Positions 1,459-21,272 of a stretch of DNA of 21,272 nucleotides are shown here, piece after piece. Source of the DNA: a virus (taxonomy: Duplodnaviria > Heunggongvirae > Uroviricota > Caudoviricetes); the IMG/VR virus record IMGVR_UViG_2617270964_000007, positions 1 through 21,272 of that record, one strand, 5' to 3'. A program made the position numbers and the translations under genes. Below the pieces are notes generated by a model. It ran no database searches. It had not been told where the DNA came from and was given only the letters and a program-made list of their open reading frames with translations. Numbering within the stretch: position 1 is the first letter of the stretch; the number at the start of each line of letters is the position of its first letter.

Positions 1459-2619
1459 TTACCCCATATTTAAATACACCACGTTCTCCTCTTGTGCCGT
1501 ATTTGTGCCATTGCGACTTATAATCGCATCGATTTTGCTTGCGTGCTCGGTGAGATGCCCGGCTGAAAGGTGGGCGTATCTTTGAACCATTTCGAGAGTT
1601 TCCCATCCTCCCATCTCTTTAAGTGCAAGAAGAGAGACACCGGACTGAACCAGCCAGCTTGCCCAGGTATGCCTCAGATCATGGAAGCGGAAGTTACTAA
1701 TGCCTGCCCGCTTTAACGCTCCCTTCCATGCCTTGTTGCTGTCGGTTCTCATCTTCCTTACCGCTGCTGTTTTTGTTCCGTCGCTTCGGTAGGCAGGTTT
1801 GGTGTGGACAAATACCCATCTCTTATGGAGCCCCTGCTGTTTTCTTAATATCTGGCATGCGGTTTCGTTAAGAGGAACTCCGATCGCATTGCCAGCTTTT
1901 GTTTCATCAGGGTGTATCCATGCCATTTTCTTATCCAGATCGACCTGTGACCACTCAAGGTCTGTAACGTTGGAACGGCGAAGGCCTGTCGTGATTGCAA
2001 ACATGACCACAGGGAAGAAGTGAGGAGCAATTTCTGCAAACAGGCGCTTCGATTCCTCCTCTGTAAGCCATCTGATGCGTCCATTCTTAACGCGTGGTGT
2101 TGATATTTTGGGTGCCCTGTCAAGCCATCCCCATTCAACAGCCATATTGAGAATGGCGCGAAGTATTGCCAGATGCCTCGTCTTCGTTCCTTTGCTTGCA
2201 AGCTTTGGTTTATACTCCGGCACCGGATTGCCAAGTCGCAAACACCTGTCCCGGCTCATCTCCCAGTTCAGGCGATGGCGGCGGTTTTCCATCCCATCTA
2301 CCGCCTCCATTATTTTTTCTGTTGTTATGTCAGAGAGAATGGCTTCTCTGAAGTGCAACATCCAGAACGATATAATGCTCTTGTCATCATCAATGGACTT
2401 CTTATCCGATTTCTCACGCAGCCACCGTATGCAGGCTTCCTTGAATAGCTTTTTCGGTGATTCCCCGAGATTTTTTACTCTCCACGCTTCTGCTTTCAGA
2501 CGATCGTGAAGTTCTTGCGCTTGCCTTTTGTCCGATGTTTCAAGAGAGCGTCTAACTCTTGATCCATCTGGCGCGACGAAATCGCAGTGCCACGTGCCAC
2601 CGCGTAGTTTGATTGACAT
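1459..2619 (-). CDS. int: Tyrosine-type site-specific integrase (P22/CP4-6 IntF-like), 386 aa
   Basis: ATG at 2619 preceded by AGGAGG. C-terminal catalytic region HDLRHTWASWLVQSGVSLLALKEMGGWETLEMVQRYAHLS carries the tyrosine-recombinase HxxR...Y signature. Position next to a tRNA att site. Confidence 0.9.
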   Translation of the reverse strand: MSIKLRGGTWHCDFVAPDGSRVRRSLETSDKRQAQELHDRLKAEAWRVKNLGESPKKLFKEACIRWLREKSDKKSIDDDKSIISFWMLHFREAILSDITTEKIMEAVDGMENRRHRLNWEMSRDRCLRLGNPVPEYKPKLASKGTKTRHLAILRAILNMAVEWGWLDRAPKISTPRVKNGRIRWLTEEESKRLFAEIAPHFFPVVMFAITTGLRRSNVTDLEWSQVDLDKKMAWIHPDETKAGNAIGVPLNETACQILRKQQGLHKRWVFVHTKPAYRSDGTKTAAVRKMRTDSNKAWKGALKRAGISNFRFHDLRHTWASWLVQSGVSLLALKEMGGWETLEMVQRYAHLSAGHLTEHASKIDAIISRNGTNTAQEENVVYLNMG

Positions 2620-9215: not shown

Positions 9216-9240
9216 AAAAAAAAAGGGGCGAATGCCCCCT
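9216..9240 (-). terminator. Rho-independent terminator at the 3' end of the repressor gene
   Basis: On the minus strand the hairpin GGGGGCATTCGCCCC overlaps the cI stop and is followed by 9 U (A-run 9216-9224 on the plus strand). It would insulate pL from repressor-gene transcription. Confidence 0.6.
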
Positions 9241-9890
9241 TATGGAAGGTTTGCTAGTTTTGCATCGACAACTACGCCGATGATTTTGCAGTTTCCGTTG
9301 ATCTCGATCATCGGATATTGTGGGTTAAGTGGTTTTAGAAACTTCCTGCCTGCATCAATAACTAACTTCTTGAAAGTTGCCTCGTTTTCTCCTTCGAGCT
9401 TTGCAACTACCAGTTTCCCGTTACGCGGCTCTACTTCAGGATCGACGAGTATTATCATTCCTTCAGGGATACTGAGACCGGCCGGAGCCGTCATTGAGTC
9501 TCCCTTCACGTCCAACCAAAACGAATCTTCTGAACAGTCTACGGTTGTATCGTACCAGTTATCTATTGCACGCTTATGATATGGTTCTACAGCTTCCATC
9601 CAGCATCCTGCGCTCACCCAGCTAATCAGAGGGTATGACCCTCTTGGATCATGCCTACTGTGATAGGCAATGTTTGAAAGACTTTCCTCTCCTTTCATCA
9701 GATAGTCAGGGGAACACTTCAACGCATTAGCCAGGGCGAGAAGATTCTCTCCATTTGGCTCTGTCTCAGAGCGTTCCCACTGAGATATGGCAACATTAGA
9801 CACGCCGACCATCTTTCCAAGTGCGGCCTGCCTGATCTTGAGTTCTTTTCTCCGAGCGCGAATGCGCTCTCCCATCAATTGAGTTTTCAT
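9240..9890 (-). CDS. c2: Phage repressor, P22 C2-type (HTH_XRE N-terminal domain plus LexA-like S24 autopeptidase domain), 216 aa
   Basis: HTH segment LKIRQAALGKMVGVSNVAISQWERSE. The C-terminal domain has the S24 catalytic motif GDSM and a downstream Lys (…VVAKLEG…). The whole protein closely resembles P22 C2 as I recall it. It is divergent from cro across operator sites. Confidence 0.9.
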   Translation of the reverse strand: MKTQLMGERIRARRKELKIRQAALGKMVGVSNVAISQWERSETEPNGENLLALANALKCSPDYLMKGEESLSNIAYHSRHDPRGSYPLISWVSAGCWMEAVEPYHKRAIDNWYDTTVDCSEDSFWLDVKGDSMTAPAGLSIPEGMIILVDPEVEPRNGKLVVAKLEGENEATFKKLVIDAGRKFLKPLNPQYPMIEINGNCKIIGVVVDAKLANLP

Positions 9891-9956
9891 AGTTAAGACA
9901 TCTTAAATAAACTTGACTTAAGATTCCTTTAGTGGATAATTTAAGTGTTCTTTAAT
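9891..9956. promoter_or_regulatory. oR (three 18-bp P22-type operators) with overlapping pR and pRM
   Basis: Three sites fit ANTNAAG-N4-CTTNANT: AGTTAAGACATCTTAAAT (9891-9908), ACTTAAGATTCCTTTAGT (9916-9933) and ATTTAAGTGTTCTTTAAT (9939-9956). pR is read as -35 TTGACT (9913-9918) and -10 GATAAT (9935-9940), pointing at cro (ATG 9971). Confidence 0.75.
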
Positions 9957-9970
9957 TTCGGAGCGAGTCT

Positions 9971-10156
9971 ATGTACAAGAAAGATGTTATCGACCACTTC
10001 GGAACCCAGCGTGCTGTAGCTAAAGCGTTAGGCATTAGCGACGCAGCAGTCTCTCAGTGGAAGGAAGTCATCCCAGAGAAAGACGCCTATCGACTGGAAG
10101 TCGTTACAGCTGGCGCCCTGAAGTATCAAGAAAGCGCTTACCGCAAAGCGGCATAA
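9971..10156 (+). CDS. cro: Cro repressor, P22 Cro-like, 61 aa
   Basis: First rightward gene after oR. HTH segment TQRAVAKALGISDAAVSQW. The length and sequence resemble P22 Cro as I recall it. Confidence 0.85.
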   Translation: MYKKDVIDHFGTQRAVAKALGISDAAVSQWKEVIPEKDAYRLEVVTAGALKYQESAYRKAA

Positions 10157-10264: not shown

Positions 10265-10543
10265 ATGCAACTTACAAGTACTCGCAAGAAAGCGAATGCA
10301 ATTACAAGCAACATCCTAAATCGAATTGCTGTACGTGGTCAGCGAAAGGTTGCTGATGCATTAGGGATCAATGAATCGCAAATTTCGCGATGGAAAGACA
10401 GCTTTATCCCAAAGATGGCCATGCTTCTGGCTGTGCTGGAGTGGGGTGTTGAAGACAAGGAATTAGCGGAGCTGGCAAAGAAAGTAGCCATGGTGCTGAC
10501 AAAAGAAAAGCCTCAAGACTGCGGCAACAGTTTTGAGGCCTGA
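10265..10543 (+). CDS. c1: CII/C1-like transcriptional activator (lysogeny establishment), 92 aa
   Basis: ATG at 10265 with AAGGAAA upstream; the track ORF starts further upstream at an alternative codon. HTH segment QRKVADALGINESQISRWK. It occupies the cII position after cro-nutR, and 92 aa matches P22 C1 as I recall. Confidence 0.7.
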   Translation: MQLTSTRKKANAITSNILNRIAVRGQRKVADALGINESQISRWKDSFIPKMAMLLAVLEWGVEDKELAELAKKVAMVLTKEKPQDCGNSFEA

Positions 10544-10577
10544 TGTAGAAAGACTGGATCAATCCACAGGAGTAATT

Positions 10578-10739
10578 ATGACAAAACGTCGTAAGAAATA
10601 CCAGGAAAAAGAAGAGATTCGACACCCTGATTCACCTGAGGGATTAGTGGTAGCCGCAGCAAATAACAGGGCGTTCGCAGAGCGCCTTGTTGGTGTTTAC
10701 AGACTAGCCAAAGCAGGAGTGAAACATGGGCGTCGTTAA
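10578..10739 (+). CDS. Small basic hypothetical protein, 53 aa, between c1 and the replication gene
   Basis: ATG at 10578 with CAGGAG 6 nt upstream. Its 3' end overlaps the start of the O-like gene by 14 nt. No family recognised. Confidence 0.35.
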   Translation: MTKRRKKYQEKEEIRHPDSPEGLVVAAANNRAFAERLVGVYRLAKAGVKHGRR

Positions 10740-11547
10740 GTTAGCTGATTACAGGCCTCAACTGGAGGTCGTGGAGCATCGCGTGGCAGATACCGAAGAT
10801 GGTTTCATGCGCGTTGCTAACGAGATTACCGACAGTCTGCTGATGGCTGATTTAACCGTCCGGCAGTTGAAGGTGATGCTCGCTATCATGCGCAAGACAT
10901 ACGGATTCAATAAGCCGATGGATCGACTCACAAACACGCAGATAGCAGCCATGACAGGTATTCATCACACTCATGTTTGCGCTGCTAAGCGCCAGCTTAT
11001 TGAGCGTAAATTCCTCATTGCTGATGGCGTGAAAATCGGAGTGAACAAGGTGGTTTCGCAGTGGATTAGCCAGGACAGCTTAACATTAGCTAAAACAGCT
11101 AATAAAACATTAGCCAAGTCGGCTAATGGGCATAAGCCAAGTCAGCTAAACACAAAAGACAATATACAAAAGACAATAAATACAAATACCCCCTTCCCCC
11201 CTAACGGGGGCGGCGATGGGCAGGTTAAACCTGAACGTCGCAAGGCAGAACGAATCGACTACGAATCCTTCCTGAACGCCTACAACACCGAAGTCGGTGA
11301 CAGACTTCCACACGCTGTTGCGGTCAACGAGAAACGCAAACGCCGCCTGAAGAAAATCATCCCGCAACTGAAAACGCCAAACGTGGACGGTTTCAGGGCG
11401 TATGTCAGGGCGTTTGTGCATCAGGCCAAGCCGTTTTACTTCGGAGACAACGACACGGGCTGGACAGCTGATTTTGATTACCTGTTGAGGGAAGATTCGT
11501 TAACGGGAGTACGGGAAGGGAAGTTTGCAGACAGGGGGATTGCATGA
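10726..11547 (+). CDS. O: Replication initiator, lambda O-like N-terminal DNA-binding domain with a divergent C-terminal domain, 273 aa
   Basis: The N-terminal segment [37 protein letters not shown] resembles lambda O (…DLTKRQFKVLLAILRKTYGWNKPMDRITDSQLSEIT…). The gene contains an iteron/AT-rich origin and is translationally coupled to the helicase gene (ATGA). Confidence 0.85.
11083..11190. repeat. ori: Candidate origin of replication inside the O-like gene: three dyad-symmetric iterons plus an AT-rich unwinding element
   Basis: Iterons TTAGCTAAAACAGCTAA (11086-11102), TTAGCCAAGTCGGCTAA (11110-11126) and AGCCAAGTCAGCTAA (about 11135-11149) sit on a 24-bp phase, each a TTAGC-N7-GCTAA dyad. 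They are followed by AT-rich ACACAAAAGACAATATACAAAAGACAATAAATACAAATAC (11151-11190) and a GC-rich clamp. Confidence 0.55.
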
Positions 11548-12920
11548 GACAGGATATCGAAGCGAGCGTTATCGGTGGCCTGCTGATTGGTGGATTAACT
11601 CCAACCGCCAGTGACGTTCTGGCAACGCTGGAGCCGGAAGCGTTTTCAATTCCGCTCTACCGGAAAGCCTTCGAGGTTATCCGCAAGCAGGCGCGAAACA
11701 GAAACCTAATCGACGCGCTGATGGTTGCCGAGGCGTGCGGAGAGGAGCATTTCACGTCAATCCTGATGACCAGCAAAAACTGCCCGAGTGCCGCAAACCT
11801 GAAGGGATATGCAGGAATGGTCGCGGATAACTATCACCGCCGTCTGGTGCTGGAAATCATGGATGAAATGCGTGAACCAATTCAGAGCGGAACCATCGAC
11901 GCATCGAGTCAGGCGATGGATGAACTTGTAAAGCGTCTTTCAGCCATCAGAAAGCCACGTGACGAGGTTAAACCTGTGCGGTTAGGGGAAATCATCACCG
12001 ACTACACTGACACGCTTGACAGGCGTCTGAGGAACGGAGAAGAGTCAGATACCCTGAAGACCGGAATCGAAGAACTTGACGCTATCACCGGAGGGATGAA
12101 CGCAGAAGACCTGGTGATTATCGCTGCTCGTCCGGGTATGGGGAAAACCGAACTGGCGCTGAAGATTGCCGAAGGCGTTGCAAGCCGCGTTATTCCTGGT
12201 TCTGACGTCCGGCGCGGAGTGTTGATTTTCTCAATGGAAATGAGCGCATTGCAGATTGCAGAGCGAAGCATTGCCAACGCCGGGAGGATGTCGGTTAGTG
12301 TGCTGCGAAATCCTGCAGCGATGGATGACGAAGGCTGGGCGCGCGTTGCTAACGGCATGAGTCAGCTTGCGGATTTGGATGTATGGGTAGTCGATGCCTC
12401 GCGGTTATCGGTCGAAGAAATACGCTCAATCGCAGAACGGCATAAACAGGAAAATCCAAACCTGTCTCTAATCATGGCGGATTATCTTGGCCTGATTGAG
12501 AAGCCGAAAGCAGACCGCAACGACCTAGCAATTGCTCACATCTCCGGAAGCCTGAAGGCGATGGCGAAAGACCTGAAAACGCCTGTTATCTCCCTAAGTC
12601 AGCTTTCGCGCGATGTTGAGAAGCGACCAAACAAACGCCCGACAAACGCAGATTTGCGTGATTCAGGAAGCATTGAACAGGACGCAGACTCAATCATCAT
12701 GCTCTATCGGGAAGCGGTATATGACGAGAACAGTAGCGCCGCGCCATTTGCTGAAATCATCGTGACGAAAAACCGTTTTGGCTCGCTTGGTACGGTTTAC
12801 CAGCGGTTCTGTAACGGACACTTTGTTGCATGTGACCAGGATGAAGCCAGACAGATTTGCACAGCATCAAATGCACCTGCTGCGCGTGGCAGACGATATG
12901 CACAAGGGGCGGACGTATGA
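11544..12920 (+). CDS. DnaB-family replicative DNA helicase (P22 gene 12-like), 458 aa
   Basis: Walker A motif ([15 protein letters not shown]) and a DnaB-like C-terminal RecA-fold region with N-terminal helical domain. It is coupled to the O-like gene, so the phage brings its own helicase rather than a lambda P-type loader. Confidence 0.88.
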
Positions 12921-12993: not shown

Positions 12994-13434
12994 ATGAAAA
13001 AACTAACCTTTGAAATTCGATCTCCAGCACATCAGCAAAACGCTATTCACGCAGTACAGCAAATCCTTCCAGACCCAACCAAACCAATCGTAGTAACCAT
13101 TCAGGAACGCAACCGCAGCTTAGACCAGAATAGAAAGCTTTGGGCTTGCCTTGGTGACGTCTCTCGTCAGGTTGAATGGCATGGTCGCTGGCTGGATGCA
13201 GAAAGCTGGAAGTGTGTGTTTACCGCAGCATTAAAGCAGCAGGACGTTGTTCCTAACCTTGCCGGGAATGGCTTTGTGGTAATAGGCCAGTCAACCAGCA
13301 GGATGCGTGTAGGCGAATTTGCGGAGCTATTAGAGCTTATACAGGCATTCGGTACAGAGCGTGGCGTTAAGTGGTCAGACGAAGCGCGACTGGCTCTCGA
13401 ATGGAAAGCGCGATGGGGAGATCGGGCAGCATGA
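12994..13434 (+). CDS. ninB: NinB (Orf-family recombination mediator), 146 aa
   Basis: ATG at 12994; the track ORF begins 18 nt upstream at a different start. The translation MKKLTFEIRSPAHQQNAIHAVQQILPD… matches lambda NinB as I recall it. Confidence 0.85.
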   Translation: MKKLTFEIRSPAHQQNAIHAVQQILPDPTKPIVVTIQERNRSLDQNRKLWACLGDVSRQVEWHGRWLDAESWKCVFTAALKQQDVVPNLAGNGFVVIGQSTSRMRVGEFAELLELIQAFGTERGVKWSDEARLALEWKARWGDRAA

Positions 13435-13958
13435 CTATCAAATCAAATACGCCAGCACACGACAAGGACTGCTGGCAAACGCCGCTTTGGCTTTTTGATG
13501 CACTGGATATTGAGTTTGGATTCTGGCTGGATTCGGCAGCGAGCGACAAAAATGCTCTGTGCGCTCACTGGCTAACTGAGGCCGACGATGCGCTCAATTC
13601 TGAGTGGGTAAGCCACGGTGCAATCTGGAATAACCCACCGTACAGCAATATCAGGCCGTGGGTGGAAAAAGCCGCTGAGCAGTGCATACAACAGCGACAG
13701 ACGGTAGTGATGCTTGTGCCAGAGGATATGTCTGTCGGATGGTTCAGCAAGGCTCTGGAGAGTGTTGACGAAGTTCGCATTATCACTGATGGACGGATTA
13801 ATTTTATCGAACCATCGACGGGGCTGGAGAAGAAGGGAAACAGCAAAGGCTCCATGCTGCTGATTTGGCGACCGTTCATCAGTCCTCGACGGATGTTTAC
13901 TACCGTATCCAAAGCGGCATTGATGGCGATCGGGCAGGGTGTCAGGAGGGCTGCATGA
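13431..13958 (+). CDS. Phage DNA N6-adenine methyltransferase (Dam family, NPPY motif)
   Basis: ATG at 13431 overlaps the ninB stop. It contains the catalytic motif WNNPPYS and the conserved WQTP motif near the N-terminus, typical of the phage Dam-family MTases. It sits between ninB and ninC, which are adjacent in lambda. Confidence 0.75.
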   Translation: MTIKSNTPAHDKDCWQTPLWLFDALDIEFGFWLDSAASDKNALCAHWLTEADDALNSEWVSHGAIWNNPPYSNIRPWVEKAAEQCIQQRQTVVMLVPEDMSVGWFSKALESVDEVRIITDGRINFIEPSTGLEKKGNSKGSMLLIWRPFISPRRMFTTVSKAALMAIGQGVRRAA

Positions 13959-14800
13959 TAAATGTCGTTAGTTTCTCAGGTGGCAGGACGTCAGCATATT
14001 TGCTCTGGCTAATGGAGCAAAAGCGACAGGCAGGTGAAGACGTGCATTACGTTTTCATGGATACAGGGGCAGAGCACCCTAAAACATATGAGTTCATCCG
14101 AAATATCGTCAGTAACTGGAAAATAGACTTACATTGCCTTCGTGTAATACCTAATCCAGAAATGGGGAAGGCCAGTAGTTATGAAGAGATAGGTGACAAT
14201 GATATTGGTCCAGATCTTATACCGTGGAAAAGGATGTTAAATAAATACGGACATCCATATATCGGCGGTGCGTTCTGTACCGACAGAATGAAGTCTGTTC
14301 CATTCACCAAATATTGTCAGGAAAAGTTTGGGAAAGGAAATTACATCACATGGCTTGGCATTCGCACAGATGAACCAAACAGGCTTAAAAGGGCTAATGG
14401 TTTTCGGTACCTGGCTGATATAAGCGATTTTGACAAACAGGATGTGCTTGATTGGTGGAGTGGGCAGAAGTTTGATCTTGGCATACAGGAGCATCTTGGT
14501 AATTGTGTTTTCTGTATAAAAAAAAGTATGCAAAAGGTTGCGCTGGCAGCCATGGATGAGCCAGAACTTGCAGATGCATTTATCAACATCCTTGATACAG
14601 AAATAAAAACAGGAAAGGAACCGGTTATGTATCGAGGGAATAATACACTTAAATCACTGATTGCCTTGTTTAGTGATATATCAAGAGATGAGTTAGCCTC
14701 AAGAATGACATCAATGCGACAGTATGATTCAGGTTCGTGTTCTGAATCATGTGAAGCATTTTCATGTCAGCTTGGATTTAATTTTGAGGATGCGGCATGA
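13955..14800 (+). CDS. ninC: NinC, PAPS-reductase-like PP-loop protein, 281 aa
   Basis: ATG at 13955 with AGGAGG upstream. PP-loop motif SFSGGRTS near the N-terminus and cysteine clusters CVFC and [10 protein letters not shown] near the C-terminus. The N-terminus [20 protein letters not shown] resembles lambda NinC as I recall. Confidence 0.8.
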
Positions 14801-20676: not shown

Positions 20677-21180
20677 TTATTGATAGTGTTTTATGTTCAG
20701 ATAATGCCCGATGACTTTGTCATGCAGCTCCACCGATTTTGAGAACGACAGCGACTTCCGTCCCAGCCGTGCCAGGTGCTGCCTCAGATTCAGGTTATGC
20801 CGCTCAATTCGCTGCGTATATCGCTTGCTGATTACGTGCAGCTTTCCCTTCAGGCGGGATTCATACAGCGGCCAGCCATCCGTCATCCATATCACCACGT
20901 CAAAGGGTGACAGCAGGCTCATAAGACGCCCCAGCGTCGCCATAGTGCGTTCACCGAAAACGTGCGCCACAACTGTCCTCCGTATCCTGTCATACGCGTA
21001 AAACAGCCAGCGCTGACGTGATTTAGCACCGACGTAGCCCCACTGTTCGTCCATTTCCGCGCAGACGATGACGTCACTGCCCGGCTGTATGCGCGAGGTT
21101 ACCGACTGCGGCCTGAGTTTTTTAAATGGCGGAAAATCGTGTTGAGGCCAACGCCCATAATGCGGGCGGTTGCCCGGCAT
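20677..21180 (-). CDS. insB: IS1 transposase InsB reading frame (expressed as the InsAB' fusion by -1 frameshift)
   Basis: The translation …[53 protein letters not shown]… is the IS1 InsB sequence. Confidence 0.88.
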
Positions 21181-21272
21181 CCAACGCCATTCATGGCCAT
21201 ATCAATGATTTTCTGGTGCGTACCGGGTTGAGAAGCGGTGTAAGTGAACTGCAGTTGCCATGTTTTACGGCA
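21099..21272 (-). CDS. insA: IS1 InsA (C-terminal portion; 5' end beyond the window)
   Basis: Reverse-complement translation gives …[18 protein letters not shown] ending at the TAA complementary to 21099-21101. The A6C frameshift window TTTAAAAAAC is present on the minus strand near 21118-21127. Confidence 0.7.

Follow-up and report, generated by a model that had tools for sequence, protein, structure and literature searches.

We describe a stretch of virus DNA of 21,272 nucleotides (IMG/VR record IMGVR_UViG_2617270964_000007, positions 1 to 21,272), in the following termed the window, which carries a lambda O-like initiator gene with an array of short dyad-symmetric repeats in its middle. 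The segment 11066-11225 is very probably a lambdoid origin of replication that lies inside the initiator gene of its own prophage and belongs to the HK97/ST104 specificity type. The gene containing this origin (10726-11547, plus strand) codes for 273 amino acids (aa) and was recognized as a homologue of lambda O and of gene 18 of phage P22 from its open reading frame (ORF) and from its Pfam and PHROG matches. Residues 19-113 correspond to the Pfam family Phage_rep_O (PF04492, E = 6e-33) and the protein matches phrog_345, described as 'replication initiation O-like' (5.8e-104). These matches bear out the initial annotation, which had placed a putative origin inside an O-like gene.

The Pfam match delimits an N-terminal domain (10780-11064, plus strand) which is presumably the origin-binding domain of the winged-helix or helix-turn-helix (HTH) kind, and the region around aa 76-90 is our candidate for the recognition helix. 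To lambda O the protein is 37% identical over aa 17-170 (BLASTP, E = 6e-30), with no similarity past aa 170. With P22 gp18 it can be aligned up to aa 265, and with gp18 of phage ST104 it shares 269 of the 273 residues (99%). The alignment with P22 gp18 defines the C-terminal domain (aa 171-273; 11236-11547, plus strand) as being of the P22 gp18 type and presumably helicase-recruiting. A Pfam scan assigned no family to this C-terminal domain, and the PDB, searched with the initiator sequence, returned nothing at E <= 1. The next gene (11544-12920, plus strand) overlaps the stop codon of the initiator gene by 4 nt and encodes a DnaB-family replicative helicase of 458 aa (Pfam DnaB_C, 1e-77, and DnaB, 4.5e-13). 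This helicase is the homologue of the P22 gene 12 product, with 90% aa identity to P22 gp12.

The repeats follow the pattern TTAGC-N7-GCTAA. Iteron 2 (TTAGCTAAAACAGCTAA, 11086-11102) and iteron 3 (TTAGCCAAGTCGGCTAA, 11110-11126) have perfect dyad arms with no mismatch. Iteron 1 (TTAGCCAGGACAGCTTA, 11066-11082) has a degenerate right arm with one mismatch and iteron 4 (TAAGCCAAGTCAGCTAA, 11133-11149) has one mismatch in the left arm, which reads TAAGC. Three such iterons on a uniform 24-bp phase had been reported in the initial annotation. All three are indeed present (starting at 11086, 11110 and 11133), but the array comprises four with the additional copy at 11066, and the start-to-start spacing was measured as 20, 24 and 23 bp and is thus not uniform. 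When up to one mismatch is allowed there are five matches to the pattern in the 21-kb window, four of them inside 84 bp. Shuffling with preserved dinucleotides (1000 shuffles) gave 0.68 matches on average; at least two matches within 100 bp occurred in one shuffle and at least three in none. The iterons start directly after the Phage_rep_O domain, which ends at aa 113, the first codon of the array being codon 114. They encode aa 114-142, between the Pfam domain and the C-terminal domain, and the earlier proposal that they code for a linker between a lambda O-like N-terminal domain and a different C-terminal domain proved correct, the latter matching P22 gp18 and not lambda O.

Downstream of the last iteron lies an A+T-rich region (11150-11187, 38 bp, 79% A+T, 66% A on the plus strand), presumably the DNA-unwinding element, which contains two tandem 14-nt copies, ACAAAAGACAATAT and ACAAAAGACAATAA (unit ACAAAAGACAATA(T/A)). 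It is followed by a G+C-rich block (11188-11225, 74% G+C) that marks the right boundary of the origin as well as a module junction and that contains a CCCCC-TAAC-GGGGG inverted repeat, forming a hairpin in the DNA fold. Both elements, the A+T-rich stretch with its repeated motifs and the G+C-rich block behind it, had been noted before and were found again. Since 64 of the 21235 segments of 38 nt in the window are as A+T-rich as 11150-11187, the A+T content alone is not discriminating. A terminator-like site on the minus strand (11128-11108), composed of the iteron 3 palindrome and the T-run of spacer 2, was judged to be incidental on account of its antisense position within a gene, and because the scan finds no more sites than in shuffled sequences.

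Relation to known lambdoid origins

In ori-lambda, O dimers occupy four hyphenated inverted repeats of 18 bp, one dimer per repeat, and an adjacent 39-bp region of high A+T content unwinds; lambda O contacts the DNA with its N-terminal domain and P with its C-terminal domain, the two domains being connected by a flexible linker (Hayes et al., PMC6022878). In ori-lambda, too, the four hyphenated-dyad iterons (17-18 bp) are found in the middle of the gene after the Phage_rep_O domain, and an inverted repeat is present to the right of the A+T-rich region. The iterons ITN1-4 of the lambda record start at 39034, 39054, 39078 and 39101, which gives the spacing of 20/24/23 bp also seen in the window and in P22, and the three origins can be aligned through the iterons without a gap. 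The offset of the array within the gene is 350 in lambda, 353 in P22 and 341 in the window. The arms, in contrast, differ, being TCCCT..AGGGA in lambda, TTTAC..GTAAA in P22 and TTAGC..GCTAA in the window, while spacer 2 (TAAAACA) is identical in lambda and the window. In all three the A+T-rich region starts with ACACAAAAGACA..TACAAAAGA; that of the window equals the P22 region exactly and is homologous to and alignable with that of lambda. The architecture is therefore not merely reminiscent of ori-lambda, as had been suggested at first, but homologous to it, as judged from the spacing, spacer 2, the alignable A+T-rich region and the annotated P22 origin. The likeness ends with the C-terminal domain, which is unrelated to that of lambda O. 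Lambda borrows the host DnaB by means of its P loader whereas the module in the window encodes a DnaB-type helicase of its own, and the window accordingly does not have the lambda O-P type of module with an O-type C-terminal domain and a P-type loader downstream.

For P22 an origin has been annotated: the curated record BK000583 contains a rep_origin at 32840-32984 within gene 18 (32488-33303), with the remark 'similar to phage lambda'. This feature begins at P22 repeat 1 and corresponds to 11066-11210 of the window in an alignment of the two genes. P22 gene 18 contains four repeats of ~20 bp that are unlike those of lambda (Gilcrease et al., PMC8022706). The P22 gene and the window gene share the position of the array within the gene, the number of four repeats, a nearly identical G+C-rich block and a homologous C-terminal domain, and the window has the P22 gene 18/gene 12 type of module, that is, a gp18-type C-terminal domain followed by a phage DnaB-type helicase. 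It does not have the P22 origin specificity, which is characterized by TTTACC..GGTAAA iterons. The N-terminal domains of P22 and the window are only about 45-50% identical, with the helix motif PTKCS in P22 and HHTHVC in the window. Because both the arms and this motif differ, the origin specificity is predicted to differ from that of P22.

A much closer relationship exists to a third group of phages. Over 822 nt the DNA of the gene is 98.4-98.8% identical to gene 18 of the Salmonella phage ST104 (98.8%), to the O genes of the coliphages HK446 and mEp213, and to those of Shiga toxin (Stx) phages such as Nil2 and 1717. HK97 has the same pair of genes, an O gene of 822 nt and a DnaB-like P gene of 1377 nt, and shares the gene order of a small ORF, O and helicase. 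Compared with HK97 and ST104 the 171-nt origin segment has two differences, one at 11131 in the spacer that separates iteron 3 from iteron 4 and one at 11196 in the G+C-rich block (Leu to Phe); the iterons and the A+T-rich region are identical. ST104 gp18 has been classed as having 'HK97 specificity' for origin recognition (Villafane et al., PMC2629481). According to the Casjens classification an origin-specificity type is defined by an aa identity of the initiators of at least 92% (PMC2629481), and the window, which exceeds this value and has identical iterons, falls into the HK97/ST104 type. The immunity region of the window is nevertheless of the P22 type (c2/cro) and not of the HK97 type. 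In the records of HK97, ST104 and related phages with the same gene the origin itself is unannotated. Among 5426 complete Escherichia coli genomes the initiator gene was matched in 713, and at least 80% of the gene in 395.

The small ORF in this gene order comprises 53 codons in the window (10578-10739; phrog_1331, function unknown) and extends into the 5' end of the initiator gene; its equivalents are HK97 gp53, ST104 orf27 and P22 orf48. The region with its Shine-Dalgarno sequence and ATG (ACAGGAGTAATTATGACAAA) shows homology to the beginning of lambda gene O, so the ancestral O start seems to have been retained for a separate small ORF.

The origins of the Stx phages 933W and P27 are also found inside a lambdoid O gene, and in vitro experiments have shown that O binds their iterons (PMC7466680). 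These origins have six lambda-type iterons, an O protein 13 aa longer and a partner of the lambda P type, whereas in the window the iterons number four and differ in sequence, and the partner is a helicase.

The comparison of O-like genes also indicates how the parts of the module are combined. In all 11 species-level loci where both could be scored, the C-terminal domain of the window type is followed by a DnaB-type helicase. Downstream of lambda O-type C-terminal domains a P-type loader comes next in three of five loci, and C-terminal domains of the phiES15 type are followed by P-like loaders or by a third type of partner. The co-occurrence agrees with the role as a recruiter of a DnaB-type helicase that had been proposed for the C-terminal domain, and we presume that P22 gp18-type C-terminal domains recruit the DnaB-type helicase of the phage. 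Several natural mosaics exist. In BTP1 (L010) the N-terminal domain and the iterons of P22 are joined to the C-terminal domain of the window. In Gally (L009) an unrelated N-terminal part with repeats of its own of the CCGCACATGA type (about 1380-1500 of L009) is joined to it. Conversely, the Cronobacter phage phiES15 has TTAGC iterons combined with a different C-terminal domain and a P-like loader. The junctions of BTP1 and Gally fall into the A+T-rich/G+C-rich stretch, in the region of the G+C-rich block 11188-11225, and the IMG/VR copies of the gene diverge from 11194 onward, likewise within this block. From these breakpoints we conclude that the G+C-rich block is a natural junction at which the N-terminal domain and origin are joined to modules of C-terminal domain and helicase.

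Conservation of the repeats and covariation with the initiator

The four iterons lie at the offsets 1, 0, 0 and 2 relative to the frame of the gene and are thus read in three frames, which argues that the repeat is kept as DNA and not as a peptide. The conservation was analyzed on two levels. A scan of IMG/VR yielded only copies with ~99% identity, which were used for counting polymorphisms, and the diversity was taken from a scan with one genome per species. From the latter we compared seven diverged TTAGC-type loci, namely the window and prophages of Erwinia, Yokenella, Serratia, Pantoea and an Erwiniaceae isolate, with N-terminal domains 66-93% identical to that of the window. Their mean pairwise identity is 93.8% in the iteron arms (40 positions), 67.9% in the iteron centres (28 positions) and 71.4% in the spacers. 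In the same loci it amounts to 75.4% in the DNA coding for the N-terminal domain (290 nt), 47% in the 30 nt just upstream and 94.4% in the A+T-rich region. Among the near-identical IMG/VR copies, 64 of which are distinct, none of the 40 arm sites is segregating as compared with 12 of the 44 centre and spacer sites (Fisher p = 2e-4); of the A+T-rich sites 1 of 38 is segregating. This pattern argues that selection acts on the DNA of the iterons rather than on the encoded peptide.

The one-genome-per-species scan gave 62 O-like loci in total. Most of the proteobacterial loci, ranging from Enterobacterales to Burkholderiales and including Pseudomonadales, have at least four dyad repeats. The arms are of several types (TTAGC, TTTAC, TTACC, GTCAC, GTAGC, GTTAC, GTTGT and AGTCC), the 20/24/23 spacing is kept in most of the enterobacterial arrays, and in most loci with dyad repeats the array is followed by a stretch beginning with (A/C)CACAAAAGA.

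An alignment of the N-terminal domains of 41 O-like genes showed that the arm type varies in step with a short motif near residues 79-84 of the window protein. All 20 copies of the TTAGC type have H-x-T-H at this position, even though they come from two clearly different subfamilies of the N-terminal domain. TTTAC types have (x)TKCS, TTACC types PHKCS (in one case SHKCS) and GTCAC types RQKV; lambda with its TCCCT arms has VKRC and the single GTAGC locus HRTH. Such a covariation is the expected outcome if this helix reads the arms. It is conceivable, and we put this forward tentatively, that the motif represents a readable recognition code and that the phages hold naturally orthogonal pairs of origin and initiator: on a constant scaffold (the 20/24/23 spacing and the ACACAAAAGAC start of the A+T-rich region) the 5-nt arms would change together with three to four helix residues, and the HK97-type pair would be one such specificity. 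We found no description of such a recognition code or of such orthogonal pairs in the searchable literature.

Some O-like genes contain arrays of seven iterons, as observed in Trabulsiella guamensis (L101), Cupriavidus (L122) and a metagenome-assembled genome of Pseudomonadales (L128). The array of L101 consists of seven TTTACCGAATCGGTAAA units on a 24-bp phase and is reminiscent of the six-iteron origins of 933W and P27. O-like genes were also encountered in metagenome bins labelled Bacillota (L091), Nitrospirota, Woesearchaeota and Methanosarcinales (together L091, L120, L129 and L144). The gene of L091 is 99% identical to the enterobacterial gene of the window and looks like a contamination or a mis-binned phage contig.

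Proposed mode of initiation and alternative explanations

By homology with lambda, dimers of the N-terminal domain of the initiator would bind the four dyad iterons through the arms TTAGC and GCTAA. The resulting nucleoprotein complex would stress the DNA and open the A-rich 38 bp, the unwinding being proposed after the model of lambda (PMC6022878). The C-terminal domain of the P22 gp18 type would subsequently deliver the phage's own DnaB-type helicase, as may be expected from lambda and P22. With the helicase being encoded by the phage and delivered by the C-terminal domain, neither a P-type loader nor the hijacking of the host DnaB would be needed. Finally, rightward transcription of the pR type would traverse the origin, since the latter belongs to the rightward early operon and has a pR-like promoter on its upstream side; an activating role of this transcription is suggested by lambda.

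Several points weigh against the assignment of 11066-11225 as a functional origin of the HK97/ST104 type. In the searchable literature we found no binding, footprint or ori-plasmid experiment on the HK97-type specificity; a search for the exact iteron and A+T-rich sequences gave no paper, and a search on origin work with HK97 gp54/gp55 gave nothing relevant. The rep_origin of P22 has itself been annotated by similarity with lambda. The assignment of the recognition helix relies on weak HTH matches at aa 66-98, which are below the threshold, and a single-sequence AlphaFold2 model of the initiator was unusable (mean pLDDT 38.7, pTM 0.23). The A+T-rich region is at the same time coding sequence for a conserved peptide, NTKDNIQKT, and its conservation could partly be at the protein level. 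Furthermore the insertion element IS1 is present ~9.5 kb downstream (from ~20662) and the prophage may be defective overall, its replication module (O gene with the origin, and helicase gene) being intact.

This last point leads to the possibility that the region is an origin by descent but now an inactive relic in a decaying, IS1-disrupted prophage. The IS1 transposase ORF (20677-21180) and the end of the prophage homology at about 20661 after rha are in line with such a decay. We nevertheless consider a relic improbable. The O and helicase ORFs are of full length and 99% and 90% identical to ST104 gp18 and P22 gp12, respectively, and the four iterons and the A+T-rich region are identical to those of HK97 and ST104, which are viable and form plaques. 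The repressor and cro genes, c1 and the pR-like promoter are all present, and late genes are not needed for replication after induction.

Another explanation would be that the A+T-rich/G+C-rich stretch is not an unwinding element and is kept mainly as a recombination joint for the swapping of modules among lambdoid phages. The stretch is identical in P22 and the window with flanks of only about 50-60% identity, and the junctions of the mosaics BTP1 and Gally as well as the divergence of the IMG/VR copies from 11194 are found in it. Yet the ACACAAAAGAC start follows directly after the last iteron from Enterobacterales to Burkholderiales. The retention of this start beside the iterons, in genes with many different C-terminal domains and partners, is in keeping with a role linked to the iterons. 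In lambda, moreover, deleting parts of the homologous region yields ori- mutants (PMC6022878). We therefore regard a recombination joint as a very improbable sole explanation; it is only as such that it fails, as the two roles are compatible and probably coexist.

The proposal that the repeats are small duplications in a flexible peptide linker with no role as DNA sites has next to nothing left in its favour: iterons 2 and 3 are indeed read in one frame, giving the repeated peptide LAKTAN/LAKSAN, and the iteron region is an inter-domain linker without a Pfam match, but iterons 1 and 4 each fall into a different frame and code for unrelated residues, the internal dyad symmetry of each unit is not required by a peptide repeat, the spacing is identical to that of lambda despite wholly different arms, the arms covary with the helix motif of the N-terminal domain, and the reading frames together with the high conservation of the arms relative to the centres and the absence of polymorphic arm sites rule out a pure peptide repeat.

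An origin recognized by the initiator in whose gene it lies is thus the reading which we prefer. The element as such is already known: it is of a textbook kind, the homologous feature of P22 has been annotated and nearly the same sequence is present in HK97, ST104 and hundreds of genomes. New are only the explicit coordinates and the comparative pattern of arms and helix motifs. To sum up, the prophage appears to carry an intact replication module of the HK97/ST104 type, consisting of origin, initiator and its own DnaB-type helicase, and our analysis mainly settles its annotation. As the module is intact, amplification in situ after induction would be possible even if IS1 breaks the late region. 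The module is common in E. coli, including many Stx-converting phages, and its predicted origin specificity is unlike that of lambda and P22. The covariation of arms and helix on a fixed scaffold offers a modest lead for orthogonal phage or plasmid origins and will be no surprise to specialists.

Prophage context of the replication module

The window represents the left and early portion of a lambdoid prophage inserted beside a tRNA-Thr gene. The left-end region (1-2843) starts with a proA-like ORF of the aldehyde dehydrogenase family (1-1254), followed by tRNA-Thr(CGT) (1369-1444), the integrase gene (1459-2619, minus strand) and an excisionase-like HTH_17 ORF. The order of proA-like ORF, tRNA-Thr and integrase corresponds to the thrW-type attachment arrangement as in P22-like phages. 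After the integrase come genes for RecT and an N-like antiterminator. The immunity region comprises the P22-type c2 repressor gene (9240-9890, minus strand) and the P22-type cro gene (9971-10156). Between the two, upstream of cro, a consensus scan located the pR-like promoter on the plus strand (9913-9940, TTGACT-16-GATAAT), and downstream of cro there is a gene for a cII/c1-like activator.

The stretch 10480-10585 (minus strand), where the c1/cII-like gene ends and intergenic DNA follows, is nearly identical to the oop region of P22, where a terminator (32277-32319) and a promoter (32346-32374) have been annotated for oop. Because of this near-identity the DNA just ahead of the initiator gene probably encodes an antisense RNA like oop. 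A scan of the whole window with Rfam at the gathering thresholds gave the tRNA only and nothing in the origin or the oop region.

Downstream of the helicase gene we find nin-region genes, Q, lysis genes, rha and IS1. The transposase ORF of IS1 is on the minus strand and the element runs past the end of the window at 21272. The similarity to other prophages stops directly after the rha region, where the head genes would be expected, and the prophage may be interrupted or truncated ahead of them. In the nin region there is an ORF for a Dam-family N6-adenine methyltransferase (13371-13958); an ORF of 311 codons with a PAPS-reductase domain (13865-14800) overlaps it.

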